From positions 1,683,034 through 1,747,033 of the forward strand of contig OZ244845.1 of assembly GCA_965220775.1 (NCBI GenBank): a DNA stretch of 64,000 nt. Reading direction: 5' to 3'. Shown here piece after piece: positions 39,522 through 64,000 of the stretch. The notes under the pieces were generated by a model, which made no database searches, was not told where the DNA came from, and saw only the letters and a list, made by a program, of their open reading frames with translations. Position 1 is the first letter of the stretch. Each line of letters starts with the position of its first letter. The position numbers were made by a program, and so were the translations under genes. The DNA is from Chloroflexota bacterium. Lineage in GTDB: Bacteria > Chloroflexota > UBA6077 > FW602-bin22 > JBCLEL01.

Positions 39522-41153
39522 CAGGGGTTTTTGATTCTCTAACATCCGTTTTCACCCAAAGGTTGGCGGTGGTCTTGCCTTCCCCCACCCGTCTGGATTC
39601 CGGCTTCCGCCGGAATGACGAATCGAGGGGCCGGAATGACCAATAAGAGGCTGCTGGAGCGGTCTATCCCGGATCGGAGTCCGGGACATGCTTTCGTGCC
39701 AATCGCTCATGCCGGCTGGCGCCGGCACACCAAGGTGTGAAAATCGGGTGCATTGGTTGGTGGGAGAGTTCTAGCGTCATTGCCACAACCCGTACCTCCC
39801 CTCTGGATTCCCGCCTTCGCGGGAATGACGAATCGAGGGGCCGGAATGACGAATCGAGGGGCCGGAATGACCAATGAGAGGCTGCTGGAGCGGTCTATCC
39901 CGGATCGGAGTCCGGGACATGCTTTCGTGCCAATCGCTCATGCCGGCTGGCGCCGGCACACCAAGGTATGAAAAGCGGGAGTTGTCGTTTGGTACAGCGA
40001 ATCGGCACGGTGGATTCTGCTGAGCCCCACCCCGACGCCAGCGGGGGACAAGCCCCTCGCCTCGCGAAGTCTTCGACCGCGCTACGATCCCCTCTCCCCA
40101 CCCCTCTGGATTCCGGCCTTCGCCGGAATGACGAATGGGGGGCCGGATTGGCGAATGGATGCCGCGAATGACCAATGAGAGGCTGCTGGAGCGGTCTATC
40201 CCGGATCGGAGTCCGGGACATGCTTTCGTGCCAATCGCTCATGCCGGCTGGCGCCGGCACACCAAGGTATGAAAAGCGGGAGTTGTGGTTTGGTGCAGCG
40301 AATCGGCACGGTGGATTCTGCCACGCCCCACCCCGACCCCAGCGGGGGACAAGCCCCCGCGCTACGATCCCCTCTCCCCACCGCTCTGGATTCCGGCCTT
40401 CGCCGGAATGACGAATGGGGGGCCGGATTGGCGAAGGGATGCCGCGAATGACCAATGAGAGGCTGCTGGAGCGGTCTATCCCGGATCGGAGTCCGGGACA
40501 TGCTTTCATAGCAATCGCTCATGCCGGTTGGCGCCGGCACACCAAGGTGTGAAAATCGGGAGTTGTGGTTTGGCACAGCGAATCGGCACGGCGGATTCTG
40601 CCACGCCCCACCCCGACCCCAGCGGGGGACAAGCCCCCGCGCTACATTTTCTCATTCCGCCATCGGCCATCGGTCTACAATTCGACAGGTTTCGCCGGTG
40701 GAGAGCCGGGACGGAGGGCGATTGGAGGGCGCATCCCGGATCGGAGTCCGGGACATGCTTTCGTGCCAATCGCTCATGCCGGCTGGCGCCGGCACACCAA
40801 GGTATGAAAAGCCGGAGTTGTGGTTTGGTACAGCGAATCGGCACGGCGGATTCTGCCACGCCCCACCCCGACCCCAGCGGGGGACAAGCCCCTCGCGCTA
40901 CGATCCCCTCTCCCCACCCCTCTGGATTCCGGCCTTCGCCGGAATGAGGAATAGAGGGGCCGGAATGACGAGAACGCGGAATGGAGGGGTTCAACGGCGC
41001 GATCGAAAGCGGCGTAGGCGCATTTTCGTACGAATGACGACGTGCGGTTTGCGGACTATCGAAATGGCCTTGGCGGGTTGATTGTTTCGACCAACTGCTT
41101 GTCGGCCTAGGAAAATACTCAAGAAGTCCTAAACATTAAAGAATAGAAAAGCC
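39522..41153. repeat. composite repeat element, long copy (cluster R7), about 5 internal tandem units
   Basis: Starts with caggggtttttgattctctaacatccgtt and ends with ...cctaaacattaaagaatagaaaagcc. The interior is made of 230-300-bp units (anchor gctgctggagcgg at 39650, 39881, 40182, 40462) built from the same palindromic modules as the other clusters. Confidence 0.9.
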
Positions 41154-43673: not shown

Positions 43674-44488
43674 CAGGGGTTTTTGATTCTCTAACATCCG
43701 TTGTCACCCAAAGGTTGGCGGTGGTCTTGCCTTCCCCCTCCCCTCTGGATTGCGGCCCCGTATCGGAGTACGGGGCATGCTTTTGATCGCCGGAATGACG
43801 AGGGGATGCCGCGAATGACCAATGAGAGGCTACTGGAGCGGTCTATCCCGGATCGTAGTCCGGGACATGCTTTCATAGCAATCGCTCATCCCGGCTGGGG
43901 CCGGCACACCAAGGTATGAAAATCGGGTGCATTGGGTGGTGGGAGAGTTCTAGCGTCATTGCCACAACCCGCACCTCCCCTCTGGATTCCCGCCTTCGCG
44001 GGAATGACGATTGGGGGGCCGGATTGACGAGGGGATGCCGCGAATGACCAATGAGAGGCTACTGGAGCGGTCTATCCCGGATCGTAGTCCGGGACATGCT
44101 TTCATAGCAATCGCTCATGCCGGCTGGCGCCGGCACACCAAGGTGTGAAAATCGGGTGCATTGGTTGGTGGGAGAGTTCTAGTGTCATTGCCACAACCCG
44201 CACCTCCCCTCTGGATTCCCGCCTTCGCGGGAATGACGAAGGGGGGGGTGCGGGAATGACGAATTGAGGGGCCGGAATGACGAGATCGCGGAATGGAGGG
44301 GTTCAACGGCGCGCTCGAAAGCGGCGTAGGCGCATCCCGGATCGGAGTCCGGGACATGCTTTCGTACGAATGACGAGATGCGGTTTCGGACTATCGAAAT
44401 GGCATTGGTGGGTTGACTGTTTCGACCAACTGCTTGTCGGCCTAGGAAAATACTCTAGAGGTCCTAAACATTAAAGAATAGAAAAGCC
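43674..44488. repeat. composite repeat element, short copy (cluster R8)
   Basis: Same 5' terminus (caggggtttttgattctctaacatccgtt) and 3' terminus (...aaagaatagaaaagcc) as 39522..41153, but only 2-3 internal units. Confidence 0.9.
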
Positions 44489-48051: not shown

Positions 48052-48390
48052 ATGAACAACATCGACACAGCATTCGCCAAAATGTTCGAAAGTTGGAACA
48101 TCCATCTTCCTCTTAATGCTACTACTCTGCAGCAACCCGGCAAGATCGTGCAAGCCGGATGGGCCATACGGTATGTGTTCGGCGAGGACTATCTCGACTA
48201 TTATGCCGAACACCGTATGACTAGCCCATGCCATGAAAGAATCCACTCCGATGGGCGGTGTGAGTCATTGCAGGCCCCGAGCAACAATGTTGAGGCAATT
48301 CGATCTTTTGACCACCAGGACGTAGGGAGGCTATACTTCGTGTGGCAAAACGAGTCGGGTAGTGATAGGGCGGTTAGCTCAGCTGGCTAG
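48052..48390 (+). CDS. hypothetical protein; C-terminus reads into the duplicated tRNA-Val leader
   Basis: 112-aa ORF. The last roughly 28 codons lie inside the 139-bp duplicated segment and the tRNA itself, so the ORF is either truncated or spurious. Confidence 0.3.
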   Translation: MNNIDTAFAKMFESWNIHLPLNATTLQQPGKIVQAGWAIRYVFGEDYLDYYAEHRMTSPCHERIHSDGRCESLQAPSNNVEAIRSFDHQDVGRLYFVWQNESGSDRAVSSAG

Positions 48391-48444
48391 AGCGCCACGT
48401 TGACATCGTGGAGGTCACTGGTTCGAGTCCAGTATCGCCCACCA
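48368..48444 (+). tRNA. tRNA-Val (anticodon GAC), copy 2
   Basis: Same fold as copy 1 with a few compensated substitutions. Encoded CCA. Confidence 0.9.
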
Positions 48445-48454
48445 TTTGCCTCAG

Positions 48455-48531
48455 GGCGCATTCGTCTAGCGGCCTAGGACACCGCCCTCTCAAGGCGGAG
48501 ATCACGGGTTCGAATCCCGTATGCGCTACCA
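48455..48531 (+). tRNA. tRNA-Glu (anticodon CTC)
   Basis: Acceptor ggcgcat/atgcgct, D region tcgtctagcggcctaggac, anticodon arm ccgcc-ctCTCaa-ggcgg, T arm cgggttcgaatcccg, encoded CCA. Confidence 0.88.
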
Positions 48532-48837
48532 ACATCTCAAGTAGGTCCCAATTCCCTGCGCCGATACTCGGTACAAGCCCAGAAAGCGAAGGTAGATTGG
48601 GGTACTTCCGAGATCGTTCTCCTCCCTTCCTAATTTGTCGTCGTCGAGAGTCGTAAAGCGAAGAGGGTCGTTCCTGATCCACGCAAGTGGGGCGATGGCA
48701 CAAACACTGGACTTGTTGCTTAGGGTGTCTCGGGAGGGTTCCGGGTTCGAGATAAGAAGCTGAATTAGGGTTGCGAACATCAAGCGTCTTCACGTATAAC
48801 GACTTGGCGAAGAGAATCTCAGGAACAATGGAGGGTA

Positions 48838-49701
48838 ATGATGGAGTGGAGCTTCGAACAGGTTGCCGGCCCATTCAATCTCACTGAAGGACCGGTTTGG
48901 AATGGGGAGCGTCTGCTCTTCACCGCAATTTATGATAGAGAGATCAAGTCATTTGATCCCTCGACCGGCGAATGTAGTGTTTTCGCCCAAGAGACCGGAA
49001 ATGGCAACGGTATGTTTCTAGACCAGCAGAGAAACCTTCTGGTCTGCGAGGGCGCGGGCCGGCGAGTCGCACGCTACCAACAAGATGGGCAACGGGTGAC
49101 CTTGGCCAGCCATTTCGAGGGTCGCCGGCTGAACCAACCGAACGACATAGTTGCCGATAATCAGGGGCGTATTTGGTTCACTGATCCATGTTATTACGAT
49201 AGAGAGAGCATGGAGTTGGATCACGAGTCAGTTTACCGGCTCGATCCCGAATCTGATGGCAGCTACAGTATGTCCAGAGTGACGTTTGACACTCTAAGTC
49301 CGAACGGCTTGGTCTTTTCGCCCGATCAGACAACTTTGTATGTTGCGGAGGCACCTAGTGTGCCGAGAGGTCAGCGCGAGCTACGCGCGTACCCTGTCCA
49401 AAGCGACGGCAGTCTCGGTGAGCCAACGATATTGCACGACTTTGGCCCGCATCGTGGCATCGACGGGATGAGAATCGACAAAGACGGCAACGTCGTGGCA
49501 GCTTGTGGATGGCCGGAAAGTGGGCCCGGTGCTCGGATAGCCGTCTTCTCCCCATCCGGCGAGGTATTGGAGGACCACGCGGTGCCGACGAGTCCTACAA
49601 ATTGTTGCTTCGGAGACAGTGACCTACAAACTCTCTACGTCACTGGTTACGACGGCTGTCTGTACAGGGGACGCACCCACCGAAAAGGGTATGTTCAGTA
49701 G
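48838..49701 (+). CDS. SMP-30/gluconolactonase/LRE-family protein
   Basis: 287-aa ORF with EGPVW, NDIVADNQGRIWFTDP, PNGLVFSPD and DGMRIDKDGNV beta-propeller motifs. Confidence 0.85.
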   Translation: MMEWSFEQVAGPFNLTEGPVWNGERLLFTAIYDREIKSFDPSTGECSVFAQETGNGNGMFLDQQRNLLVCEGAGRRVARYQQDGQRVTLASHFEGRRLNQPNDIVADNQGRIWFTDPCYYDRESMELDHESVYRLDPESDGSYSMSRVTFDTLSPNGLVFSPDQTTLYVAEAPSVPRGQRELRAYPVQSDGSLGEPTILHDFGPHRGIDGMRIDKDGNVVAACGWPESGPGARIAVFSPSGEVLEDHAVPTSPTNCCFGDSDLQTLYVTGYDGCLYRGRTHRKGYVQ

Positions 49702-53431: not shown

Positions 53432-53911
53432 TTGCATCGTTCGTTAGTGGCGGTCAATCGCCCATTAAGGACTAAAATAACAGACCGTCCAACTCTAGAG
53501 GAGGTTGTGGTATCTTCTAAATGCTATGAAAGCGGGGTGCACTCTTTGAGTTCGGTATTAGACAGGCTCTGGCGGACGGGAAAAGCAACCGCATTCGGAG
53601 ACCGGGCAAAGATAGAAGAGGAAGTCGCGAATTGGGAGGACGACCTTGCTCGTCGGGGCCGCGATAACCAGCGGCGGCAGAGAACGCCGGCTTCGCTCGT
53701 GAATTCGAAGGAGTTGCAGGATGCTTTCGCGGCACTGGAAGTGCCTATCGGCTCAGATTGGGAGACCTCCCACCGAGCCTTTCGCAGGATGGCTCAGAAG
53801 TATCATCCGGATAAATGGCATAATGATCCCAAGCGAGAAGTGGCGGAAGTGCTGTTCAACAAGATAAATCAGGCCTTTGATCTTATAAAGGCGCACTACG
53901 GAAAAAGATAG
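53432..53911 (+). CDS. J-domain (DnaJ-like) protein
   Basis: C-terminal J domain with an HPD tripeptide (FRRMAQKYHPDKWHNDPKREVAEVLFNKINQAFDLI). Start uncertain: TTG at 53432, or GTG near 53507 after GGAGG. Confidence 0.75.
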   Translation: MHRSLVAVNRPLRTKITDRPTLEEVVVSSKCYESGVHSLSSVLDRLWRTGKATAFGDRAKIEEEVANWEDDLARRGRDNQRRQRTPASLVNSKELQDAFAALEVPIGSDWETSHRAFRRMAQKYHPDKWHNDPKREVAEVLFNKINQAFDLIKAHYGKR

Positions 53912-53962
53912 TTTCACGCTCCCAAAGGGGTGTGTAGTACGTGGGGTAAGGAGAATAGAATC

Positions 53963-54346
53963 ATGTCACACTATGAGAGTGTCAAGGCGATGGTAGTTGA
54001 ACTGGGGTTCGTCCCTCATAACGAGGATCCTGAAGGGACGTTGTTCGTCATTACTGACGAAGACCGAGGCATCCTGAACCTCGTGGTGGACTGCCAGGAC
54101 GACATTCTGAGACTCGAGCAGGTCTTGGGTCTCATCACTCCACAGACGGACTTCCGGCAACTCCTGGCGATGAACCGGGAGTTGGTGCATGGAGCGTACG
54201 CCCTTGGCCGGCAAGGCAAACGTATCATATGGACAGACACCCTACAGATTGGCAACCTTGACCCGAACGAGCTCGAAGGCTCATTCGACGCGCTGTCGCT
54301 TGCTGTAGCCGAGCACGGCGATCAACTGATCAAGATGCTCAAATAA
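53963..54346 (+). CDS. YbjN/YjfI-like (DUF2170-type) small cytoplasmic protein
   Basis: 127 aa from the ATG after AAGGAG. Size, acidic character and position directly upstream of pspA mirror E. coli yjfI. No strict motif, so the assignment is by context and general resemblance. Confidence 0.55.
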   Translation: MSHYESVKAMVVELGFVPHNEDPEGTLFVITDEDRGILNLVVDCQDDILRLEQVLGLITPQTDFRQLLAMNRELVHGAYALGRQGKRIIWTDTLQIGNLDPNELEGSFDALSLAVAEHGDQLIKMLK

Positions 54347-54380
54347 GGAAAGTCGAGGATAGGCTGAAAGGAGAAACGAA

Positions 54381-55070
54381 ATGTCACTATTCCAACGAGT
54401 GTTCGGCATCGGAAAGGCCGAGGCGCATAGCGCTCTCGACAAAATAGAGGACCCTGTCAAGATGACCGAGCAGGGGATTCGAGACCTGCGAAGTGATCTT
54501 GAAAAAAGCGTGAACGCGCTGGCTGCGGTCAAAGCCAATGCCATACAAGCGAGAAGAAGACTTAATGACCAGCGGCGTCGCGCCCAAGACTACGTGAAGA
54601 AAGCCTCATTGTTGGAGGAACGCACCGGCGACGACAACCAAGAGTTAGCTTCCAAAGCGCTCGTCGAGGCTCAAACGATCGCTGCAAGCCTTCCTCAACT
54701 CCAACAGGACGCGGAAAGACAAGAGGCGATGGGTACCCAGCTTGGTGGAAAGATAGGAGAGTTGAAGACCACGATTCGTTCCTACGAAAACGAACTGACC
54801 ATCCTGAAAGCGCGGGCCCAGACCGCAAAATCCGTCGAGAAGATCAATAAGGTGATGGCCGGCGCAGACTCCTCGGGAACCGTAGCTATGTTGGAGCGTA
54901 TGAAGGAGAGAGTTGACGAGGGAGAGGCACGCGCTCAGGCATATGGCGAGCTTGCGGAGGGTGGATCCAGCCTTGACGACGAGTTAAAAAAGGCACTACC
55001 CGCCGGCGGTGCTTCCCAGGATTCTAACGCAAACCGGATCGATGACCTAAAGAAACAACTGGACATGTGA
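54381..55070 (+). CDS. pspA: PspA/IM30 (ESCRT-III-like) family protein
   Basis: 229-aa coiled-coil ORF. MSLFQRVFGIGKAEAHSALDKIEDPVKMTEQGIRDL matches the PspA/IM30 N-terminus. AAAGGAG RBS. Confidence 0.9.
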   Translation: MSLFQRVFGIGKAEAHSALDKIEDPVKMTEQGIRDLRSDLEKSVNALAAVKANAIQARRRLNDQRRRAQDYVKKASLLEERTGDDNQELASKALVEAQTIAASLPQLQQDAERQEAMGTQLGGKIGELKTTIRSYENELTILKARAQTAKSVEKINKVMAGADSSGTVAMLERMKERVDEGEARAQAYGELAEGGSSLDDELKKALPAGGASQDSNANRIDDLKKQLDM

Positions 55071-55082
55071 TAAGGAGTACAG

Positions 55083-55634
55083 ATGGACGAGATTTCCGCC
55101 TCCGACCTTAAGACTCTAAAAAAGGGCGATATCATCGACTTCCATGATGCCTACCTGGTCACCGGTTTTCCCATCCCGAATTTCAACATTCTTTCGGAGG
55201 GGCCGTTCACGGTAAAGAAGAGGTTCAAATATAGCTACAGTTGGGAATATCTAGTCGAAAGCATCGAAGGTAGGAACGCCTATGTCGAGTATGAAGAGGA
55301 AGATGGAGAGCCGGAGATACTTATAGATATTCGCCTGGACAAGAAATTCCCCCATATCTCGCACGAGCTATTGAGTACGTCGAAACGCGACGTAAGTAAG
55401 TTCACGCTGAACAGCGTTGCTTATTATCTGGATGAGAACGATGACGACACCGATGAGGACGGGGAGGAGTACGAATATTGGGACTTCTACTCCGGCCCAA
55501 TTCCCGGGAGCGAAGACCAACGGCTATTTATAGGCATAGAGGATTATGGAGATCCCGGCAAGCCGGAGTACGAGGTGTTCGCGGGGTTTACGCTTCCAGC
55601 ACGTGCGATCAAGGACATTATCAGGCGGAGATGA
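55083..55634 (+). CDS. DUF4178-like protein
   Basis: 183-aa ORF, 12 bp after pspA. LKKGDIIDFHDAYLVTG plus an acidic C-terminal half resembles DUF4178 proteins found next to pspA (B. subtilis ydjH-type). Needs HMM confirmation. Confidence 0.6.
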   Translation: MDEISASDLKTLKKGDIIDFHDAYLVTGFPIPNFNILSEGPFTVKKRFKYSYSWEYLVESIEGRNAYVEYEEEDGEPEILIDIRLDKKFPHISHELLSTSKRDVSKFTLNSVAYYLDENDDDTDEDGEEYEYWDFYSGPIPGSEDQRLFIGIEDYGDPGKPEYEVFAGFTLPARAIKDIIRRR

Positions 55635-55790
55635 ATCACAAGATTTGCGCATCAACATCGGGACATTGGTAGGTGTCCCGATTTATATTACAGAATCTCC
55701 ACATTTTCCTTTTACAAATCCTCTAGACTTAACTTAGCTGAGGCCAGCACGTCACAACGTGAAACCTGCTGAATATCTCTGCCCTCATTC

Positions 55791-56516
55791 TTGCCTAGCC
55801 CTGAAAACGTGAGTGAAATGGAGACTCCTGTGAGCAACGAGTTGGATTATCAAGAGCAATCCGCTCAAGATCTCCGACTAAACGTCATTGAAGGTGAGTT
55901 CGACCTGTCCCAGTTCCAAATCTTCAAGACGGAAGTACTGCAAGTCTCACCTGAATTCAGTGTGGAGGCCATGATCATAGGCAGAAGTCATGCGATCTGT
56001 TTTCAGGTTGGCGCTATGAGGTTGTACGAGGTCTTTGCCTGTGGGGAGGTCCGAACGTCGCGCAGCCGAGCCTTTTATGGGCCGCTTAGCGAGGTCACTG
56101 GTTCCGTGGAGCTTGGCTTTCACCCTCAGGTAACCTACGGTTTCCGGGCGATGGCAATGCGTTGGCCTGAAGGTACGGCGGAAATTCGACGGATGGAAAC
56201 TGAGAGCGTCGGTTCCCAAGGATTCTATTTGAGCTATGATTTTCCCCGAGGAGCGCACGGAGATCCTGCGAGGACCATCATCTTGGGATATCCTAATGAG
56301 CCGGAGGCTTCCTTAAGAATCAGGACCGCTCACTCATATCCCAACGAAGGAACGATTGTAATCAGCCACTCTGGTTTGCTTACCGGAAAGGATGGCAGAG
56401 CCTATGAGAACGAAGTATCTGTGGCCGGCCATGGCCGTCCTGTTAACAATGTTGTTAATGGGAGGATGCGCCGGACTGCCTCAGGAGCTCCGGGACCAAG
56501 CCGACGCGATTCCTGA
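55791..56516 (+). CDS. hypothetical protein of the pspA neighbourhood
   Basis: 241-aa ORF with no motif I can name. Its last roughly 38 codons overlap the lipoprotein gene in another frame. Start uncertain: TTG at 55791 or ATG at 55818. Confidence 0.45.
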   Translation: MPSPENVSEMETPVSNELDYQEQSAQDLRLNVIEGEFDLSQFQIFKTEVLQVSPEFSVEAMIIGRSHAICFQVGAMRLYEVFACGEVRTSRSRAFYGPLSEVTGSVELGFHPQVTYGFRAMAMRWPEGTAEIRRMETESVGSQGFYLSYDFPRGAHGDPARTIILGYPNEPEASLRIRTAHSYPNEGTIVISHSGLLTGKDGRAYENEVSVAGHGRPVNNVVNGRMRRTASGAPGPSRRDS

Positions 56517-57996
56517 GCAGATCACTCAGGCAGAACAAAGAGTTGGTGAGCTCTCTGATAGCTTTCAGAGCGTCAAACAGTCATCCGAGTACACAGATTT
56601 CTTCAAGCGGTACGATGAACGCGAGAAGTGGGATTCGTATTTCCAGGACGCTCGCAGCCGGCTGGCTGATGCTGGCGCCGTCTATGAACAGGCCGTGAAA
56701 CCTCTCCTTGATCGCAATAGCCCTGAAGACGCAGAGGCGTTGCGCGTGCAGCTGGAGCGCCTCGGCCTCGCGGTGAGAGATGCCCGCGAGGAGGCTGCAA
56801 AGCCCGGTAACCGCATGCAATTCCTGCGTGACGCCAAGGCCCAGGGCCCGGAATGGGTGGTAGAGGCCGAGAAAGATCTGGGCCTGACCAAGGTAGTATT
56901 CGACGATCTGGCCACGGTTGTAAACGAGGCCAAGAGCGATTATCCGGACAAAGAGACGGATCTTACTGCCCGCTTTGTGGCCGTGCGTGACCTCTACGAC
57001 GCGTCCCAAAAGGCGGTAGATGTTGCGAAAAGCGAGAGAAATTCGGCAGATCCCGATTACGCCGCACTGGGAGACAGTGTGCAACTTGTCGCTGAGAATT
57101 TCGACCGAATCCAAGAACAGGATAAGGAGCTAAGAGCTAGGCTGGCAGAGCTTGGTCGCAGTTACTCGAAGATGCTCGTCGATATGGATGTGCGCAAGTC
57201 CATAATCGTGGGGCGCACTAGCTGGAACGAAGGCGCAGATTTCCCCGCGGAGCACAACTACGCCTATGGTCCAAGACAGGTAGATCAAGCGACCTACGAT
57301 TCAATCGCTGGGCTTCCGGACAATCACGTCCTCGCAATCTTCACCAGCGGATTCTTCAGTGGTCAGAGTCTCCGGGTCGGCATGGACCAGGCTGGATGGA
57401 ACGCATTGGGTATCGATCCGGCGGAATCCTGGCCCAGCGGAGACGATACTGCGGAGTTTTGGTTGCAAGACGCGCCGGCCGACTACTATCACAAATACAT
57501 TGTCACTGAGAACGGCCAACGCCGAGAAACCGGCTGGGAACCAGTGACTTGGGAGTACTTCGAAGCCAACTTGGAGAACCTTGGCATGGACATTGTGACA
57601 AAACCCTACGGTGCGTACGAGGACGAGGTCGTCAACGTGGCTGCGCCTCCGGGTATGGCCTATGTCGGTAACTCCAGATACGGCGAATGGCGGGAGGATA
57701 ACCAGGGAAATCGGTTCTGGGACTGGTTTGGTCCATACTTATTCTTCAGCACACTTCTCCATAGGCCCTACTACTACAACGACTGGAATGGCTGGCGCGG
57801 CGGATACTATGGTCAGAGACCCTACTATGGTCCCGCCGGCGATTCCAAACGATACGGTACGTACTCACAGAATACAGGGACTCGATACTCTGGCTCGGCT
57901 TGGGCGAGGAAAGGCGGACTCCAAAGTCAATCTGCCTCTGTGCGTGGAGCGGGCCCTGCCGGTCGCGGGGGAGGTCCCAGCGGGGGCGGAAAGTGA
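56392..57996 (+). CDS. large lipoprotein with coiled-coil N-half and Gly/Tyr/Arg-rich C-terminal tail
   Basis: 534-aa ORF. MRTKYLWPAMAVLLTMLLMGGC is a lipobox (the ATG at 56404 may be the true start). Helical, charged N-half. The tail is ...YYYNDWNGWRGGYYGQRPYYGPAG...GAGPAGRGGGPSGGGK. Confidence 0.7.
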   Translation: MAEPMRTKYLWPAMAVLLTMLLMGGCAGLPQELRDQADAIPEQITQAEQRVGELSDSFQSVKQSSEYTDFFKRYDEREKWDSYFQDARSRLADAGAVYEQAVKPLLDRNSPEDAEALRVQLERLGLAVRDAREEAAKPGNRMQFLRDAKAQGPEWVVEAEKDLGLTKVVFDDLATVVNEAKSDYPDKETDLTARFVAVRDLYDASQKAVDVAKSERNSADPDYAALGDSVQLVAENFDRIQEQDKELRARLAELGRSYSKMLVDMDVRKSIIVGRTSWNEGADFPAEHNYAYGPRQVDQATYDSIAGLPDNHVLAIFTSGFFSGQSLRVGMDQAGWNALGIDPAESWPSGDDTAEFWLQDAPADYYHKYIVTENGQRRETGWEPVTWEYFEANLENLGMDIVTKPYGAYEDEVVNVAAPPGMAYVGNSRYGEWREDNQGNRFWDWFGPYLFFSTLLHRPYYYNDWNGWRGGYYGQRPYYGPAGDSKRYGTYSQNTGTRYSGSAWARKGGLQSQSASVRGAGPAGRGGGPSGGGK

Positions 57997-58053
57997 CCCT
58001 CCGGCCAACAGAACTACATTCGGAGTCTGTGAGAGAACAAAGGAGCGAAGCTC

Positions 58054-58923
58054 GTGTCTAACATCGACCTATCGCAAGAGGTCAACCAGCTTTGGCAAGG
58101 TCTCGTATTCATAGCGGTCGTCCTCGCATTCATGTTCCTCATGAAACTTTGGCGCGATTGGCGGACGCATTTCGACACCGACGAAGAGGTGGAAGAGAGG
58201 AGAAACCTTGCCGTCGGCTTACGTCGGGCCGGCATTTATCTAGCGATTGCGATTGCTATGGTGGGAGCTGTTTCTGGGTCACCGCAAGGGTTCGTGCCGG
58301 ACCTGACTGCATTGGTCATCGATGGGATTCTGGCCGTTGTCCTTCTCGCCGGTGCGCGGATATTCAACGATGCCGTGATCCTAGGAGCAGTCGATAACGA
58401 CACCGAAGCAAAGAATGGCAACGTCGCGGTAGGGCTTGTCGAGGCGGGGTCCACTATCGCGACGGGCCTTATTCTGTACGGCGCATTCACCGGAGAGAGT
58501 GTCGATTTACTGAACGGTATCTTGAGTGTTCTGGCATTTGCGGTTCTGGGTCAGATAGCGTTGTTCGTTTTCTACGAGGTGTACCAGCTAATTACACCGT
58601 TCAACGTCAAGGATGAGATAAAGAACGGGAATGCCGCCGCGGGCACTGCGGTCGCCGGAATGCTTGTCGCCCTGGGATTCATCCTGAAGGCGAGTATCGC
58701 AGGTCCGTTTGTCAGTTGGGTAGATGACCTTGTGTCATTTGCGTTGTACGCGGTCATTGGTATCTTGGTCCTTCTCCTGTTCCGCAAGGTGATCGATTGG
58801 CTATTCCTCCCTAACACGAACCTTGCAACCGAGGTTGCCCGCGACAGGAACGTCGCGGCCATCGCCATGGCCCAAGGCGCGATTATCGCCGTGGCTCTGG
58901 TCATTAGCGCCGCGATCATCTAA
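58054..58923 (+). CDS. polytopic membrane protein with repeated DUF350-type segments
   Basis: 289-aa ORF, GTG after AAAGGAG. Four repeats of the pattern (R/G)N(V/A)A(V/A)G...G...A..(L/V)I (RNLAVGLRRAGIYLAIAIAM, GNVAVGLVEAGSTIATGLIL, GNAAAGTAVAGMLVALGFIL, RNVAAIAMAQGAIIAVALVI), as in YjfL/DUF350. Confidence 0.7.
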   Translation: MSNIDLSQEVNQLWQGLVFIAVVLAFMFLMKLWRDWRTHFDTDEEVEERRNLAVGLRRAGIYLAIAIAMVGAVSGSPQGFVPDLTALVIDGILAVVLLAGARIFNDAVILGAVDNDTEAKNGNVAVGLVEAGSTIATGLILYGAFTGESVDLLNGILSVLAFAVLGQIALFVFYEVYQLITPFNVKDEIKNGNAAAGTAVAGMLVALGFILKASIAGPFVSWVDDLVSFALYAVIGILVLLLFRKVIDWLFLPNTNLATEVARDRNVAAIAMAQGAIIAVALVISAAII

Positions 58924-59114
58924 GGGTCCCGACCCGAAGATCGCGGTCGAAGTCAGAAGGGCAAATTGTCCTTAAGCTTTTCTCCGCGCAGATACATATG
59001 TAGTGGGCTCGGTTGCGCTACTCGATGGAGCACTCCGTGAAAGGACGAGTTGCCGTAGACCAGCTGTCGGGAAAATGGCCAGCCGGATTGAGATCGTTCT
59101 TCCGGAACGTGCCT

Positions 59115-60788
59115 ATGCGCGCTCATCTCCCGACGATCCTGCTTGCCTCGTGCATGTTCTTTACCGGCGCCGCCGGCCTGGTTGTCGAGTACATCCTCAG
59201 CACCGTAAGCACCTACATCCTAGGGAACTCGATCGAACAATTCGTCATCATCATTGCGCTGATGCTGTTGATGATGGGAGTTGCCGGCTCGGCGCAGAAT
59301 CTGATCGGCGACCGCGGCCTCGTAGAGAAGTTCATCCTCATCGAGATTTTGTTGGCGTGGCTCGGTGGATTCGCCCCCATAGCAATATACGCTGCCTTTG
59401 GCGCTCTGGTGCACCACTTCCAGGTTATTCAGTACTTCTTTGTGATCTCCATAGGTCTCCTGATCGGATTTGAAATTCCCCTCGTGCTTCGTATCAACGA
59501 GAGATACCAGAAGCGGCTGGGTGCAAACATCGCCAGCATCTATACGCTCGACTACGTCGGAGCATTCGTAGGGGCCGTAGCCTTCAACTTCTTACTACTG
59601 AAGCTCTTTCCCCTCACGGAGATAAGCTTCATTGTCGCCGGCCTCAATTTCTTCGTAGCAACACTGGCATTCTGGTACTTCTGGCGACAGGACCTGATTT
59701 CCCATCGGTGGGTGATGGGGGGAGCAATTGTTGTTACCGTCTTCGCACTGGGGTACGGGTACCTCAATAACCGCGGCTGGAATCAGAGTATCGAACAGAG
59801 ACTATATAATGCGCCAATAGTCTTGGCTAAGACGACCAGCTATCAGCGGCTGGTATTGACCTATAGCGATCGACGGGGCGAATATCGGTTTTTCATCAAT
59901 GGCAATCTGCAGTTTTCGAGCAGAGACGAGAGCATTTATCACGAGCAGCTTGTACACCCGGCGATGGCGCTCGTGCCGGACCATCGGCGAGTCCTGATAC
60001 TCGGAGGCGGAGATGGCCTTGCCTTGCGTGAGGTGTTGAAATACCCGGATGTCGAAGAGGTGACCCTAGTCGAACTGGACCCGGAAATGATCGAGCTGTT
60101 TTCTACAAACTCGACTCTACGTGAACTCAACAACGATGCATTCGCCGATGCCCGGGTGAGGGCTTGGTCTTCGCCGGGGGTGCAGGCATCTGAGGAGAGA
60201 ACAGTTCTCTACCAAGAATCGGGAGAGACCGATCAAGCCGGACGCGGCGTGTCCGAGCCGATCAGTAGCGTAGAAGTGTACACCGTAGACGCGGACCGGT
60301 TCATCGCTGACGTGGGCGAAGCCTGGAACGTGATCTTTATCGATCTGCCTGACCCAAGCTCGGTGGAACTCGCCAAGCTGTACAGCAAGGAGTTCTACTT
60401 GAAATTGCATCCGGTTCTCGCCGAAACAGGCGTGGTCGCCTTACAAGCAACCTCCCCTTATCACGCAACAGAGACCTACCTCGGCATTCAGAGGACGATG
60501 GAAGCGGCCGGCTTCAGGACGTTGCCCTATCACGACAACGTCCCTAGTTTCGGCGACTGGGGTTGGTTATTGGGCTGGAAGAATGAGACTTCCGAGGAGA
60601 CGGTTCGAGCCAGAATCGAGCGTCTGTCCCAGTTTCAGGTGGAGACGGACTATTTGACGCCAGAGGTGTTCCGGCGGGCTCTTGTATTTGGAAAGAATTG
60701 GCTCGAGTCCCGGCACGACGGGATCAGTACGCTCATGGATCCCAAGGTACTCTACTATTACCTAGATGAGAGTTGGATAGCCGAATAG
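59115..60788 (+). CDS. membrane-anchored polyamine aminopropyltransferase (spermidine/spermine synthase-like)
   Basis: An N-terminal multi-TM domain of about 220 aa, followed by a SpeE-like domain (ILGGGDGLALREVLKY, IFIDLPDPSS). The start could also be 59013 or 59025. Confidence 0.85.
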   Translation: MRAHLPTILLASCMFFTGAAGLVVEYILSTVSTYILGNSIEQFVIIIALMLLMMGVAGSAQNLIGDRGLVEKFILIEILLAWLGGFAPIAIYAAFGALVHHFQVIQYFFVISIGLLIGFEIPLVLRINERYQKRLGANIASIYTLDYVGAFVGAVAFNFLLLKLFPLTEISFIVAGLNFFVATLAFWYFWRQDLISHRWVMGGAIVVTVFALGYGYLNNRGWNQSIEQRLYNAPIVLAKTTSYQRLVLTYSDRRGEYRFFINGNLQFSSRDESIYHEQLVHPAMALVPDHRRVLILGGGDGLALREVLKYPDVEEVTLVELDPEMIELFSTNSTLRELNNDAFADARVRAWSSPGVQASEERTVLYQESGETDQAGRGVSEPISSVEVYTVDADRFIADVGEAWNVIFIDLPDPSSVELAKLYSKEFYLKLHPVLAETGVVALQATSPYHATETYLGIQRTMEAAGFRTLPYHDNVPSFGDWGWLLGWKNETSEETVRARIERLSQFQVETDYLTPEVFRRALVFGKNWLESRHDGISTLMDPKVLYYYLDESWIAE

Positions 60789-60894
60789 TAACTGTTCAGA
60801 TTTGAGCGTAATTTGTCCTGCGCGTTTGCAAATTGTGATCGAACAAGGACGGTAGGTTGTGGCGGAACTGCCCATAGCGACTCAATGTGGCACG

Positions 60895-61640
60895 GGTGCG
60901 CCGGCCGCCCCTCCCCTGGATTCCCGCCCCGTATCGGGGTACGGGGCATGCTGTTGATCGCGGGAATCACCATGGCCTTGCGAAGGCCGCATAAGCCGCA
61001 TAAGAGGATGAAAATTGGCAACGCGAGTTAGGGGACTCATCCATCCCGGATCGGAGTCCGGGACATGCTTTCATAGCAATCGCTCATGCCGGCTGCCGCC
61101 GGCACACCAAAGTATGAAAACCCGGAGTTGTGATTTGGTACAGCGAATTGGCACGGCGGATTCTGCTACGCCCCACCCCGACCCCTGCGGGGGACAAGCC
61201 CTCGCGCTACATTTTCTCATTCCGGCATCGACCATCGGTCTACAATTCGGCAGGTTTCGCCGGTGGAGAGCCGGCATCGAGGTTGATTGGAGGGCACATC
61301 CCGGATCGGAGTCCGGGACATGCTTTCGTACCAATCGCTCATGCCGGCGGGCGCCGGCACACCAAGGTATGAAAAGCCGGAGTTGCGGCTTGGTACAGCG
61401 AATTGCCATGGCGGATTCTGCCATGCCCCACCCCGACCCCTGCGGGGGACAAGCCCCCGCGCTACATTCTCTCATTCCGGCATCGGCCATCGGTCTACAA
61501 TTCGGCAGGTTTCGCCGGTGGAGAGCCGGCATCGAGGTTGATTGGAGGGCACATCCCGGATCGGGGTCCGGGACATGCTTTCGTACCAATGACGAGAGTG
61601 GGGATCTATTCTCGTACCAATGACACTCACGAGACTGGTC
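60895..61640. repeat. intergenic cluster of palindromic modules (cluster R9), about 3 tandem units of 245-265 bp
   Basis: The anchor atcccggatcggagtccggg occurs at 61043 and 61308, with a variant (atcccggatcggggtccggg) at 61553. Units match 40.5-40.8 kb and, inverted, 24.96-25.2 kb. Preceded by ccccgtatcggggtacgggg and tggccttgcgaaggcc modules. Confidence 0.9.
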
Positions 61641-61694
61641 CGCCTAAATCTGAACAGTTACGCCGAATAAGCTGAATCTACCAGCTAGATTGTT

Positions 61695-62027
61695 TCAGGT
61701 CTGGCCGAACCGGCGATGGCCGCGTGTCGGTGCGACGGTCGCTTTTTTCAGCCGGCTGCCGCAGAACGGGCAATAGCGAGCCGGCCAGAAACGGATCTCC
61801 GGATTGCCGACGCTGACCGTCTCGTAATCGGTGCCGTAGAGCAACCAGCCGGAATCGCTGTCAATGGGATTGGCGAACGTGACGTCGCAGGCGCTGCGGA
61901 AATCCTCGCAGCAATACTCGATCTTCATGCCCGGGCCGGTGCTCGCCCCATCTGAAGTTCTCAATCGGTCGTCCTCGTCTTCCAGTCGCCCGCTGCGGAT
62001 CTCAGGATAGCTCTCGATATTCCGCAA
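61695..62027 (-). CDS. small Cys-containing hypothetical protein
   Basis: 110-aa ORF (alternative ATG at 61928 gives MKIEYCCEDF...). It has a C-terminal CPFCG motif and lies 15 bp downstream of the toast-rack gene on the same strand. Confidence 0.4.
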   Translation of the reverse strand: MRNIESYPEIRSGRLEDEDDRLRTSDGASTGPGMKIEYCCEDFRSACDVTFANPIDSDSGWLLYGTDYETVSVGNPEIRFWPARYCPFCGSRLKKATVAPTRGHRRFGQT

Positions 62028-62042
62028 TATGCAGGCTCCGTG

Positions 62043-62999
62043 CTACCGGATAGAGATCGATGAAACTCCGCTGTCAATCCGCAAGTCTACGCGATTATCC
62101 GCGCTTTCATAGTCGGGCGAAACATATCTGTCTCCCACTTTCGGGAAGCGTGCCAGGTCGACATCGATGTCATTGAGTCCTCCCTCGATTCTGATGCTGG
62201 CGGCGACTCCTTCTGGGATTTCGATATCGATCTCTGCGGCGCCCGTAGAAATCGATCCCACGGTGTGCCCAAGCTTCGGCGCGACGATGTCGATCGTGCT
62301 CGCACCAGCATCAAGCGTAAATCGAGTGACTCTTAGAGATCCCATGTCGAGTTTCGCTTCAGAAGCACCGAATGCAAACTCCAAATTCAGTGGAATCTCC
62401 TGGGTTAGCATCACGTCCCAATCGTCTGCAACGACAGTCGATCCGCCAAAGAATCCTTCGCCCGAGCTGTGCAGCTCGAGCACGGCGGCTCTATCGTCAC
62501 GACGCAACTCTTGCTCGATGAATCTATTCGAGCGGATCGCTCCAGTGGCCAGAAGTTGACTGCCGCGTTCGAGCTCGGAGAGCTCGAATGCGGCTGCACC
62601 GGTAGCTAAGCGGATGGTAGCGCTTTCCGCTAGGCCCAACTCGGCCTTCACATTGTGCGTCACAAGGTGTGGAAGTCCATAGTTACCCACCGCGGATGGC
62701 GATAGCGTCGCTATGAGGAGAATTCCGGCAATGGCGGCAATCGCGATAACTCCCATAAGATATTTGCCTAGAGCCGTCCGCCGGCCGACGATGATGTCGA
62801 GCCCTATAAGGATCAGAATGACCGGCCAAAAGCGCCAGAGTCGTCCCCAGACTTCCCAAGGTACAAATCCCAACGTCTGAGATAGGAAGATCAATCCCAG
62901 GGCAATTAGCAGGATTGGAAATAGGAGTGAGCCTCGGTTATTGGCTGCCTGCGATTGAGTCGAACCCACAGATGGTGCGTTCACAGTTTGGTCGCTCAT
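62043..62999 (-). CDS. LiaF-like membrane protein: N-terminal TM hairpins plus C-terminal toast-rack (DUF4097/DUF2154-like) beta domain
   Basis: 318-aa ORF. The N-terminus LLFPILLIALGLIFLSQTLGFVPWEVWGRLWRFWPVILILIGLDIIVG shares the hairpin motif of the three upstream small genes. The C-terminal half shows repetitive short beta-strand patterns (GAAEIDIEIPEGVAASIRIEGGLNDIDVDL). ATGA overlap with the upstream gene. Confidence 0.7.
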   Translation of the reverse strand: MSDQTVNAPSVGSTQSQAANNRGSLLFPILLIALGLIFLSQTLGFVPWEVWGRLWRFWPVILILIGLDIIVGRRTALGKYLMGVIAIAAIAGILLIATLSPSAVGNYGLPHLVTHNVKAELGLAESATIRLATGAAAFELSELERGSQLLATGAIRSNRFIEQELRRDDRAAVLELHSSGEGFFGGSTVVADDWDVMLTQEIPLNLEFAFGASEAKLDMGSLRVTRFTLDAGASTIDIVAPKLGHTVGSISTGAAEIDIEIPEGVAASIRIEGGLNDIDVDLARFPKVGDRYVSPDYESADNRVDLRIDSGVSSISIR

Positions 63000-63256
63000 T
63001 TTCTAACCCTCAAGTTGACATTCCTTGCCAGAGTGAATAGTCCGATCCCGATAATGATTGTGGGCCACATCGTCCCCCAGTTCCACCACCAAAGGAACCC
63101 AAGATTGGCCAGCAAAAATATCACCCCAACCAGGATCAGGATCAGGCCGGCTAGTTGCTTTGGTCTCCAACCGCCTTTGGACGGCATTGACTTGATGGAG
63201 ACCGTGTTTGCACTGTCCGAGCCGGTCAAACGGTTGCTAGTAGCTTGCTCACTCAT
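62996..63256 (-). CDS. small LiaI/PspC-type TM-hairpin protein (paralogue 3)
   Basis: 86 aa from the internal ATG: MSEQATSNRLTGSDS...KQLAGLILILVGVIFLLANLGFLWWWNWGTMWPTIIIGIGLFTLARN. ATGA overlaps at both ends. Confidence 0.65.
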   Translation of the reverse strand: MSEQATSNRLTGSDSANTVSIKSMPSKGGWRPKQLAGLILILVGVIFLLANLGFLWWWNWGTMWPTIIIGIGLFTLARNVNLRVRK

Positions 63257-63513
63257 CGTGCCTCCTTCCCCCTCGTGTTGCCCATCAAGAAGAATAGCCC
63301 TACTCCCATTATGATCACGGGCCAAGTCGTATCCCAATCCCACCACCAGAAGAGTCCAAAATTGGACAGAAGAAAAATCACTCCAACTAGGATCAGGATC
63401 AGGCCGGCTAGCTGCTTCCGTCTCCACCGGCCACTGGATGGCTTCGGCTCGATGGCGACAGGTGTCGCACTTTCCGAACGGGTCGAGTCATTGCTGGCGG
63501 TTTGTTCACTCAT
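63253..63513 (-). CDS. small LiaI/PspC-type TM-hairpin protein (paralogue 2)
   Basis: 86-aa ORF: MSEQTASNDSTRSES...KQLAGLILILVGVIFLLSNFGLFWWWDWDTTWPVIIMGVGLFFLMGN. ATGA overlaps at both ends. Confidence 0.65.
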   Translation of the reverse strand: MSEQTASNDSTRSESATPVAIEPKPSSGRWRRKQLAGLILILVGVIFLLSNFGLFWWWDWDTTWPVIIMGVGLFFLMGNTRGKEAR

Positions 63514-64000
63514 CGTTCACCTCTGCTTCTAGCGTTGTTCGCCAAGAGGAATAGACCTATTCCGATAATGACCATTGGCCACATCCAGTCCCAATTCCAC
63601 CACCAGAATAGTCCCAGGTTGTCCAGAAGAAATATCGCTCCAATCAGAAGCAGGACCAGGCCGATTAGTTGCCGCGGTCGTCGCCGGCCACCGAATGGCC
63701 TTGAAGGGGCGGTTGGTGCAGTCTCTTCTGCGCGTACGGAGGAGCGTACTTCCTCGCCAAGCTGTTCCGCCCGCTGAGCGACATCCATGGCTGCATCAGC
63801 TAATCTGTGACCGATGTTCTCGCCCTCGGCTGACGCCGATTCACCAGCCGAAGTAAATGCGGCGTTGGCTTCCTCGCCGAGCTTCCGAGCCCGCTCGCCG
63901 ATTTCGCGAGCCGTCTCCGAGAATTGCTCGCTGAGTTCGCCGGCGCCAGAGGCCGAGTTGGCAATCGTAGATTCTGGAGTCGTGGCCGGCTCCTCCGGCA
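63510..64000 (-). CDS. LiaI/PspC-type TM-hairpin protein with a longer charged helical N-terminal region (5' end outside the window)
   Basis: The frame is open from 63998 with no stop: PEEPATTPESTIANS...AREIGERARKLGEEANAAF...MDVAQRAEQLGEEVRSSV...RQLIGLVLLLIGAIFLLDNLGLFWWWNWDWMWPMVIIGIGLFLLANN. The ORF-track entry (Met at 63788) is the shortest version. Confidence 0.6.
   Translation of the reverse strand, partial: PEEPATTPESTIANSASGAGELSEQFSETAREIGERARKLGEEANAAFTSAGESASAEGENIGHRLADAAMDVAQRAEQLGEEVRSSVRAEETAPTAPSRPFGGRRRPRQLIGLVLLLIGAIFLLDNLGLFWWWNWDWMWPMVIIGIGLFLLANNARSRGER

Follow-up and report, generated by a model that had tools for sequence, protein, structure and literature searches.

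An expanded PspC, transmembrane-hairpin and toast-rack operon, probably of the Psp/Lia kind, beside a PspA operon in a Chloroflexota bacterium

What is understood of Psp/Lia systems comes mainly from Proteobacteria and Firmicutes. In the Lia system of Bacillus subtilis (liaIH-liaGFSR), LiaI anchors LiaH and LiaF controls LiaRS (PMC9239133). The parts of Ravi et al. (2024, PMC11237479) that deal with the domains involved report that Toastrack migrates together with PspC and LiaI-LiaF-TM, and that these domains are found with two-component systems. Here we analyse a locus built from these domains at the end of a 64,000-nt window, by which we mean the whole stretch of DNA analysed (Chloroflexota bacterium, assembly GCA_965220775.1, contig OZ244845.1, positions 1,683,034 to 1,747,033). 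The locus is a minus-strand operon of PspC, transmembrane (TM) hairpin and toast-rack genes, convergent, as the initial annotation of this DNA correctly described, with a string of genes that includes pspA. It is an expanded form of a widespread two-gene core that consists of a PspC-hairpin gene and a hairpin-toast-rack gene.

Four genes of the operon lie in the window (62043-64000). At every junction between them the open reading frame (ORF) listing and the sequence show that stop and start overlap as ATGA, and a GGAGG-like Shine-Dalgarno sequence lies a few bases 5' of each start; the overlaps are kept in relatives. In the order of transcription, the genes encode a PspC-linker-hairpin fusion, of which the 3' 491 nt are in the window (63510-64000, cut by the window end; the full gene of 224 aa has the window-equivalent coordinates 63510-64184), two single TM-hairpin proteins of 86 aa each, LiaI2 (63253-63513, loop WWWDWDTTWP) and LiaI3 (62996-63256, loop WWWNWGTMWP), both coupled by ATGA at either end, and a LiaF-like protein of 318 aa (62043-62999). 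The initial annotation had recognised three small coupled paralogues, and these indeed have in common the motif (K/R)QL(A/I)GL..L..G.IFLL.N.G..WWW.W...WP.II.G.GLF (the loop of the fusion protein reads WWWNWDWMWP). Counting as members of a Pfam family the hairpins whose hidden Markov model (HMM) score reaches the gathering score (27 bits), all four proteins match PF18917 (LiaI-LiaF-like_TM1), with 39.3 bits for LiaI2, 35.4 for LiaI3, 31.5 for the cut fusion gene and 36.3 for the LiaF-like protein, whose N-terminus had been thought to carry a related hairpin. All four also match PF22570 (LiaF-TM) above gathering, with 29.6-33.7 bits and 33.7 for the LiaF-like protein, and the 64-kb window has no further copies of these domains. 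Matches of the hairpins to UbiA, Acyl_transf_3, Phage_holin_3_6, Apolipoprotein and YtxH were far under the cut-off and were set aside as hydrophobic or helical noise. The translational coupling by ATGA overlaps probably keeps production of the four proteins in fixed proportions, and they probably assemble into one membrane complex.

The upstream part of the operon is found on a public contig of 2.8 kb, L001, which encodes an identical 318-aa protein, matches the window at 100% identity over 1959 nt and adds 849 nt to it (its position 850 corresponds to 64000 in the window). The first paralogue had been described as longer in its charged N-region and running off the window, which is right, but it is not merely a longer paralogue: complete on L001, it consists of PspC at the N-terminus, a linker of ~100 aa and a hairpin at the C-terminus. 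The linker is acidic and predicted to be helical, with an acidic helical motif present twice, and the RA..LGEE repeat reported in the charged N-region is real (ERARKLGEE and QRAEQLGEE). A 70-aa gene encoding only PspC precedes the fusion gene. Pfam PspC (PF04024) is matched in both products, as is TIGR02978, the NCBIfam PspC model (E=2.6e-16 for the 70-aa and 4.3e-14 for the 224-aa protein, both under the equivalog cut-off, which gives membership at the domain level only). This PspC half of the system, which lies outside the window, had escaped the initial annotation; the extension of the contig that the latter proposed as a way to reach the 5' end gave the full fusion gene, the 70-aa pspC gene and a promoter block.

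This block lies just 5' of the 70-aa pspC gene, where a promoter-like ATGACA-17-TAGAGT is found. Directly 5' of this -35/-10 pair, ~80 nt (L001 185-290, window-equivalent ~64665-64560) are near-invariant in relatives down to 55% identity of the LiaF-like protein, with the sequence GATAGCCGCATCGGTAGAAAGGATGATGAA...CTCTTTGTCT...GTTGG.C.GCCGATGACA and the inverted hexamers CATCGG/CCGATG ~60 nt apart. The block is a candidate regulator site, and its position just 5' of the -35 element would suit an activator. The RNA fold of the 110-nt spacer between pspC and the pspC-hairpin gene is unremarkable (z-score -1.4). We did not count the called "genes" of 82 and 118 aa that precede the 70-aa pspC gene, which overlap repeat DNA and are poorly conserved.

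The last protein of the coupled series has a TM hairpin at ~25-72, a third TM segment at ~80-100 and a C-terminal beta-helix at ~110-318. We assign the latter to the toast-rack fold, in its DUF2154/LiaF-like branch, because of three concordant results. First, the profile of a family of 30 homologues matches PDB 4QRK (4qrk_A) with E=6.5e-39 over profile positions 109-307, and this structure is given as an example of the Toastrack fold in the domain descriptions of PMC11237479. Second, the AlphaFold2 (AF2) model (mean predicted local distance difference test score, pLDDT, of 80, and above 90 in nearly all 10-residue blocks from 111) shows four helices followed by an all-beta C-domain, and Foldseek with this model returns 4qrk (E=3.7e-16, TMt 0.84) and then 3pet, 3lyc, 4opw, 3ljy and 3jx8, all DUF4097 structures. 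Third, at E<=0.01 the family members match Toast_rack_N (PF17115; 20/30) and LiaF-like_C (PF09922; 15/30). The toast-rack proposed earlier for the C-terminal half of the protein is thus correct and covers two thirds of it. The HMM searches suggested at the same time gave PF18917, PF22570 and PspC, but the direct match of the 318-aa protein to PF17115 is sub-threshold (E=0.22, 12.3 bits for a cut-off of 22), as is its match to the LiaF equivalog model discussed below.

The closest genomes, found by a genome scan with alignment of close homologues, are metagenome-assembled genomes (MAGs) of Chloroflexota, such as OZ253568.1 (86% identity). The whole arrangement recurs in the loci L002-L006 (86% and 72% identity) and L085/L086 (55%), in the order pspC, pspC-hairpin, hairpin(s), LiaF-like gene and a small Cys-rich ORF, and here too it converges with the genes of the PspA string, from the spermine-synthase-like gene to the DnaJ gene. 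In L002-L006 and L085, a multi-TM PAS-HisKA_3 kinase (about 4 TM plus the PAS domain) and a Response_reg+GerE regulator of the NarL type are encoded divergently, just 5' of the operon. Because relatives carry the pair at this place, the kinase and regulator genes of the source genome are most likely to be found immediately beyond the end of the window, which fits the earlier suggestion of a regulator beyond the edge. The two genes are adjacent in L005 (5729-7895) and separated by an insertion of ~1-1.5 kb in L006 (4550-7744) and L085 (4328-7893); the one in L085 holds small uncharacterised ORFs on the plus strand.

Beyond these relatives, HMMs made from domains of the window were used to annotate 40 loci, and a PspC-linker-hairpin gene was found immediately 5' of the LiaF-like gene in 28/34 more distant loci, spread over five phyla: Chloroflexota, Bacteroidota (Pedobacter, Arcticibacter), Ignavibacteriota, Halanaerobiales and WWE3. 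A single-protein version, PspC+LiaF-TM+Toast_rack, also exists (P0029). Only the narrow clade of the window has the second PspC gene and the pair of stand-alone hairpin genes, together with the long, duplicated linker and the two-component genes; the sole exception is an extra stand-alone PspC in L018.

How does this locus compare with the systems described before? It shares with the Lia system of B. subtilis, VraTSR and the enterococcal LiaFSR the small LiaI-LiaF-TM protein(s) and a LiaF-like protein with TM segments and toast-rack and, in relatives, the adjoining HisKA_3 kinase and NarL/GerE regulator. By analogy, it probably works in the same way, with an accessory protein that modulates an intramembrane-sensing kinase and hairpins that anchor a protein of the PspA family. 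The label "Lia-like" given by the initial annotation holds for the LiaI/LiaF-type hairpins and the toast-rack, but not for a Bacillus-type operon, since liaH/pspA are missing from the operon, the LiaF equivalog model scores below its cut-off and the kinase is generic. LiaG is also lacking. Single hairpins (2 TM) encoded by tandem genes stand in place of one 4-TM LiaI, and there are two PspC domains. The kinase of relatives is encoded divergently, outside the LiaF-like operon and 5' of it, whereas liaS and liaR follow liaF in Bacillus. With apparently 3 TM segments instead of 4, the LiaF-like protein would have its toast-rack outside the membrane, and the host belongs to the Chloroflexota.

The locus also resembles the PspC-LiaI-LiaF-TM-Toastrack architectures treated in Ravi et al. 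(2024), in which these three domains follow one another in the same order. The PspC-hairpin and hairpin-toast-rack pair of the window is a split form of the fused PspC+LiaF-TM+Toast_rack protein exemplified by P0029. For this kind of system, which includes yvlABCD of B. subtilis and actinobacterial PspC-kinase systems, the sections of PMC11237479 on such contexts describe both the two-component link and operons lacking pspA. The present clade differs by a second, stand-alone PspC, two stand-alone hairpin genes, a PspC linker stretched to ~100 aa by the duplicated helical acidic motif, and the tail-to-tail position of the whole locus relative to a PspA operon. Thus, the locus reveals no new type of system: going by what PMC11237479 (in those sections) and PMC9239133 report, all the domains were already described, as were their co-occurrence, their link to two-component systems and PspA-free variants. 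What is new is a form both dissected and amplified, in which two PspC genes are joined by two stand-alone genes for single hairpins that undergo fusion and loss, a probable 3-TM LiaF-like protein, the PAS-HisKA_3 kinase, and the position beside a CesT-PspA-polyamine operon in Chloroflexota. The parts are unusually dissected, with PspC, PspC plus hairpin, hairpin (twice) and hairpin plus toast-rack as separate cistrons; together with the natural fusion and loss variants, they make convenient constructs for tests of pairwise interaction and topology.

The convergent neighbour (53432-60788, plus strand) is a candidate effector partner, and its matches to Pfam identify it as an operon of the known CesT/Tir-PspA-DUF350-spermine-synthase type. 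It encodes, in order, a DnaJ-domain protein, CesT_Tir_1, PspA, a 183-aa protein, DUF2617, a 534-aa lipoprotein, DUF350 (8TM) and a multi-TM spermine-synthase-like protein (PF22550 3e-35, PF04012 4.5e-48, PF03994 7e-52 and PF01564 1e-31). Its PspA (54381-55070) is the sole one in the window, and lies on the other strand and in a separate operon from the LiaF-like gene. A CesT/Tir-PspA operon with 7TM-spermine synthase, DUF350 (YjfL), lipoprotein and DUF4178 is part of the PspA contexts described in Ravi et al. (2024, PMC11237479, second group), with which the string of the window shares its content, although it is here the neighbour of the finding; in those descriptions of PspA contexts, such an operon is not reported beside a PspC/LiaI/Toastrack operon. 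Three of its genes deserve a remark. The 183-aa protein (55083-55634) has no match in Pfam or NCBIfam, at a place where the literature leads one to expect something like DUF4178. The 534-aa protein (56392-57996, plus strand) has a lipoprotein-like N-terminus (LLMGGC) and matches no Pfam family. Its longest ORF overlaps that of DUF2617 (55791-56516, plus strand) by 125 nt, so one of these genes probably begins further 3' than its longest ORF suggests. The distance between the two operons had been given as ~0.9 kb, a value that holds when counted from the small Cys-rich ORF, but the stop of the LiaF-like gene is 1.25 kb from that of the spermine-synthase gene (60788).

Our results suggest that the locus is probably a Psp/Lia-type module for envelope or membrane stress, with one promoter for five genes, sensing by hairpins and PspC, control of a kinase by the LiaF-like protein and docking of PspA. 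The promoter just outside the window would drive pspC (70 aa), the fusion gene (224 aa), the two hairpin genes (86 aa each) and the LiaF-like gene (318 aa). The signalling and anchoring steps that we infer for their products would be as follows. A disturbed membrane would be sensed by the PspC domains together with the Trp-rich hairpins. The adjacent intramembrane-type kinase would be modulated by the LiaF-like protein, much as LiaS and VraS are by LiaF and VraT, and the regulator would act on the conserved block 5' of the -35 element. The K/R-rich, probably cytoplasmic tails of the hairpins and the helical acidic linker of the PspC fusion may serve as docking sites for PspA, by analogy with LiaI and LiaH, and the most obvious candidate for docking would be the PspA of the convergent CesT-PspA-polyamine operon, whose gene is 7 kb away.

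Several observations weigh against this scenario. The operon itself has no pspA. The LiaF equivalog model (NF040535 LiaF_C_term) gives only 12.8 bits on the 318-aa protein for a cut-off of 57 (E=0.099). The two-component genes are found in relatives, and are absent from both the window and L001, which ends 849 nt past the window. The relatives' kinase scores 78 bits with the Strep_LiaS model for a cut-off of 450, and judging from its sequence the pair is of the generic HisKA_3/NarL class and not an equivalog of LiaSR. The AF2 model of the PspC-hairpin fusion is of low confidence (pLDDT 52) and gives no more than a hint of a helical linker. The placement of the toast-rack is also disputed. The LiaF-like family has three hydrophobic segments, and among the 30 homologues the mean numbers of charged residues are 2.5 K+R and 0.5 D+E in the N-terminal tail, 1.9 and 0.07 in the loop between the second and third TM segments, and 1.3 and 3.6 in the 25 residues after the third. 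From this distribution of charges, a count and no more, we take it that the N-terminus may be inside and the toast-rack extracytoplasmic, while the domain account in PMC11237479 predicts Toastrack to be intracellular. The literature is split on this point, since a preprint on VraT has the LiaF-like domain extracellular and the DUF4097 of LiaG was described as extracellular (PMC9239133). The hairpin proteins, with K/R-rich tails on both sides of an uncharged Trp-rich loop, are suggested to be N-in/C-in with a Trp belt at the outer interface.

The remaining points against the stress-module scenario concern the PspA string, and leave room for a second explanation, which we regard as a serious though less probable one: the operon would be an autonomous PspC/toast-rack module of membrane signalling that is independent of that string, its adjacency being inherited synteny and any PspA partner being irrelevant or encoded elsewhere. 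Core modules from beyond the narrow clade have no detectable PspA or HisKA_3 kinase within 10 kb, and for PspA this extends to ~75 other core loci from many phyla; the search for PspA in these distant loci was a single-sequence phmmer search, which may miss divergent PspA. Many PspC/Toastrack contexts free of PspA are likewise among those described in PMC11237479. The functional link to the PspA string thus rests on synteny within one narrow clade, where the adjacency is kept in L005, L006, L085 and L090. The outer flanks on both sides (aminotransferase and hydantoinase genes) are syntenic in the same relatives, and since the adjacency is kept only where general synteny is kept, it may carry no functional meaning. 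Furthermore, the 23-nt core of the conserved promoter block has no match in the window at <=3 mismatches, and the operon promoter shares one 10-mer with the region upstream of the PspA string when 0.7 are expected. We therefore rejected a regulator site common to the two operons, and their co-regulation finds no support in shared motifs beyond chance. On the other hand, the adjacency persists down to 55% identity of the LiaF-like protein, and it outlasts the insertion between kinase and regulator genes, the fusion and loss of hairpins and the insertion of repeats. Moreover, hairpins of the LiaI type are known anchors of PspA/LiaH.

A broader proposal, on which we are doubtful, is that this clade of Chloroflexota has one integrated stress locus of its own, made up of the PspC/hairpin/toast-rack operon together with the kinase/regulator pair and the CesT-PspA operon. 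An extracytoplasmic toast-rack and the two PspC sensors would then gate the PAS-HisKA_3 kinase, while the copy number of the hairpins, changed by duplication, fusion and loss, would set the recruitment of chaperoned PspA and of a polyamine-based repair machinery. If the sensor module were truly co-regulated with the CesT-PspA-polyamine operon beside it, the locus would connect two phage shock protein (PSP) contexts so far described separately, and it would provide a natural system for settling the topology and function of the toast-rack.

It is much less probable that the toast-rack is an extracytoplasmic structural or adhesin-like, cell-wall-binding beta-helix held in place by its TM segments, for which the hairpins would be assembly scaffolds with no role in stress signalling. 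The closest structures were deposited as "putative cell adhesion protein/adhesin" and the charge pattern does put the domain outside the membrane. However, these PDB names are guesses from structural genomics, the gene is in a tight operon with PspC domains, relatives have a two-component system adjoining it, and Pfam ties the family to LiaF-like_C.

All cistrons of the operon, including both extra hairpin genes, are under purifying selection. Where divergence is informative, dN/dS is 0.07-0.36 for every one, and relative to L006 and L085 it is 0.09-0.36 across all six (with dS of 0.4-1.4). LiaI2 has dN/dS of 0.15-0.33 and orthologues in L005, L006, L085, L090 and L091, and LiaI3 has dN/dS of ~0.30-0.36 relative to L006 and L085 and orthologues in L005, L006 and L091. 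LiaI2, LiaI3 and the hairpin of the fusion each form their own orthologue group, and all three groups recur in relatives. The alignment of paralogues that the initial annotation proposed for dating the triplication gave dS of 0.7-1.1 and dN of 0.30-0.43 among the hairpins, and the duplication is therefore, by these distances, old and earlier than the split of these lineages. Copy number nevertheless varies: L091 has both LiaI2 and LiaI3, L090 (650-1094) misses LiaI3 and has a gap of 190 nt in its place, and in L085 (9498-10004) the two 86-aa genes are merged in frame into one 168-aa protein with two hairpins. Such an in-frame fusion is sequence evidence of the Rosetta-stone type that the two hairpins act together, and its product resembles the 4-TM LiaI-LiaF-TM unit as defined in the domain section of PMC11237479. 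Stand-alone hairpins and multi-hairpin proteins are common in themselves: at E<=1e-3, homologues fall into 395 representative clusters, of which many are stand-alone proteins (50-110 aa) and many have 2-3 matched stretches. The idea that chance or repeat DNA accounts for the small hairpin ORFs, invited by their length (86 aa) and by the repeats nearby, is effectively refuted already by these stand-alone homologues, Pfam matches above threshold, distinct orthologue groups in at least five relatives (dN/dS 0.15-0.36 at dS up to 1.4), the in-frame fusion in L085, and Shine-Dalgarno sites with ATGA coupling.

The operon had been annotated as spanning 61695-64000, which stands for 62043-64000, but the lowest ~330 nt (61695-62027, minus strand) are a separate, conserved Cys-rich ORF. 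It has a 77-aa core from the ATG at 61928 (the TTG at 62027 is a possible start) and a CC..C...CPFC motif, and no Pfam family matched its product (IEYCCEDF...C...CPFCGSRL). It is found 3' of the LiaF-like gene in L005, L006, L085 and L091, with dN/dS of ~0.09-0.23. We considered it as a ZnR partner that would define the module and rejected this, as a homologue with 62% identity follows amidohydrolase and Rieske genes in an unrelated context, the Chloroflexi MAG locus L089. The ORF is probably a last cistron or a passenger that does not define the module.

The convergent intergenic region contains a tandem array of 255-nt repeats (61042-61590), which is outside the system. This repeat DNA is an insertion, because the 86% relative L005 keeps the flanking sequence yet lacks the array (~680 nt). 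The array is one of three in a dispersed tandem-repeat family (39669-40770, 43848-44371 and 61042-61590) with periods of ~230-300 nt, whose 35-nt core CCGGATCGGAGTCCGGGACATGCTTTCGTACCAAT occurs 11 times at <=3 mismatches (0 expected), always on the plus strand. A partial copy 5' of the operon promoter (L001 ~20-130) means that the family flanks the operon on both sides. The intergenic region is bracketed by a 21-nt inverted repeat (60788-60808 and 61641-61661, 90% complementary); both arms are in L005 and neither is in L006 or L085, where only ~25 nt separate the stop codons. This suggests a small inserted element that was expanded later. An Rfam scan of 60600-62100 gave no match. Elsewhere in the window, the plus strand carries genes for tRNA-Val(GAC) at 48368-48444 and tRNA-Glu(CTC) at 48455-48531, because of which the 166-aa minus-strand ORF at 48374-48874 is spurious.

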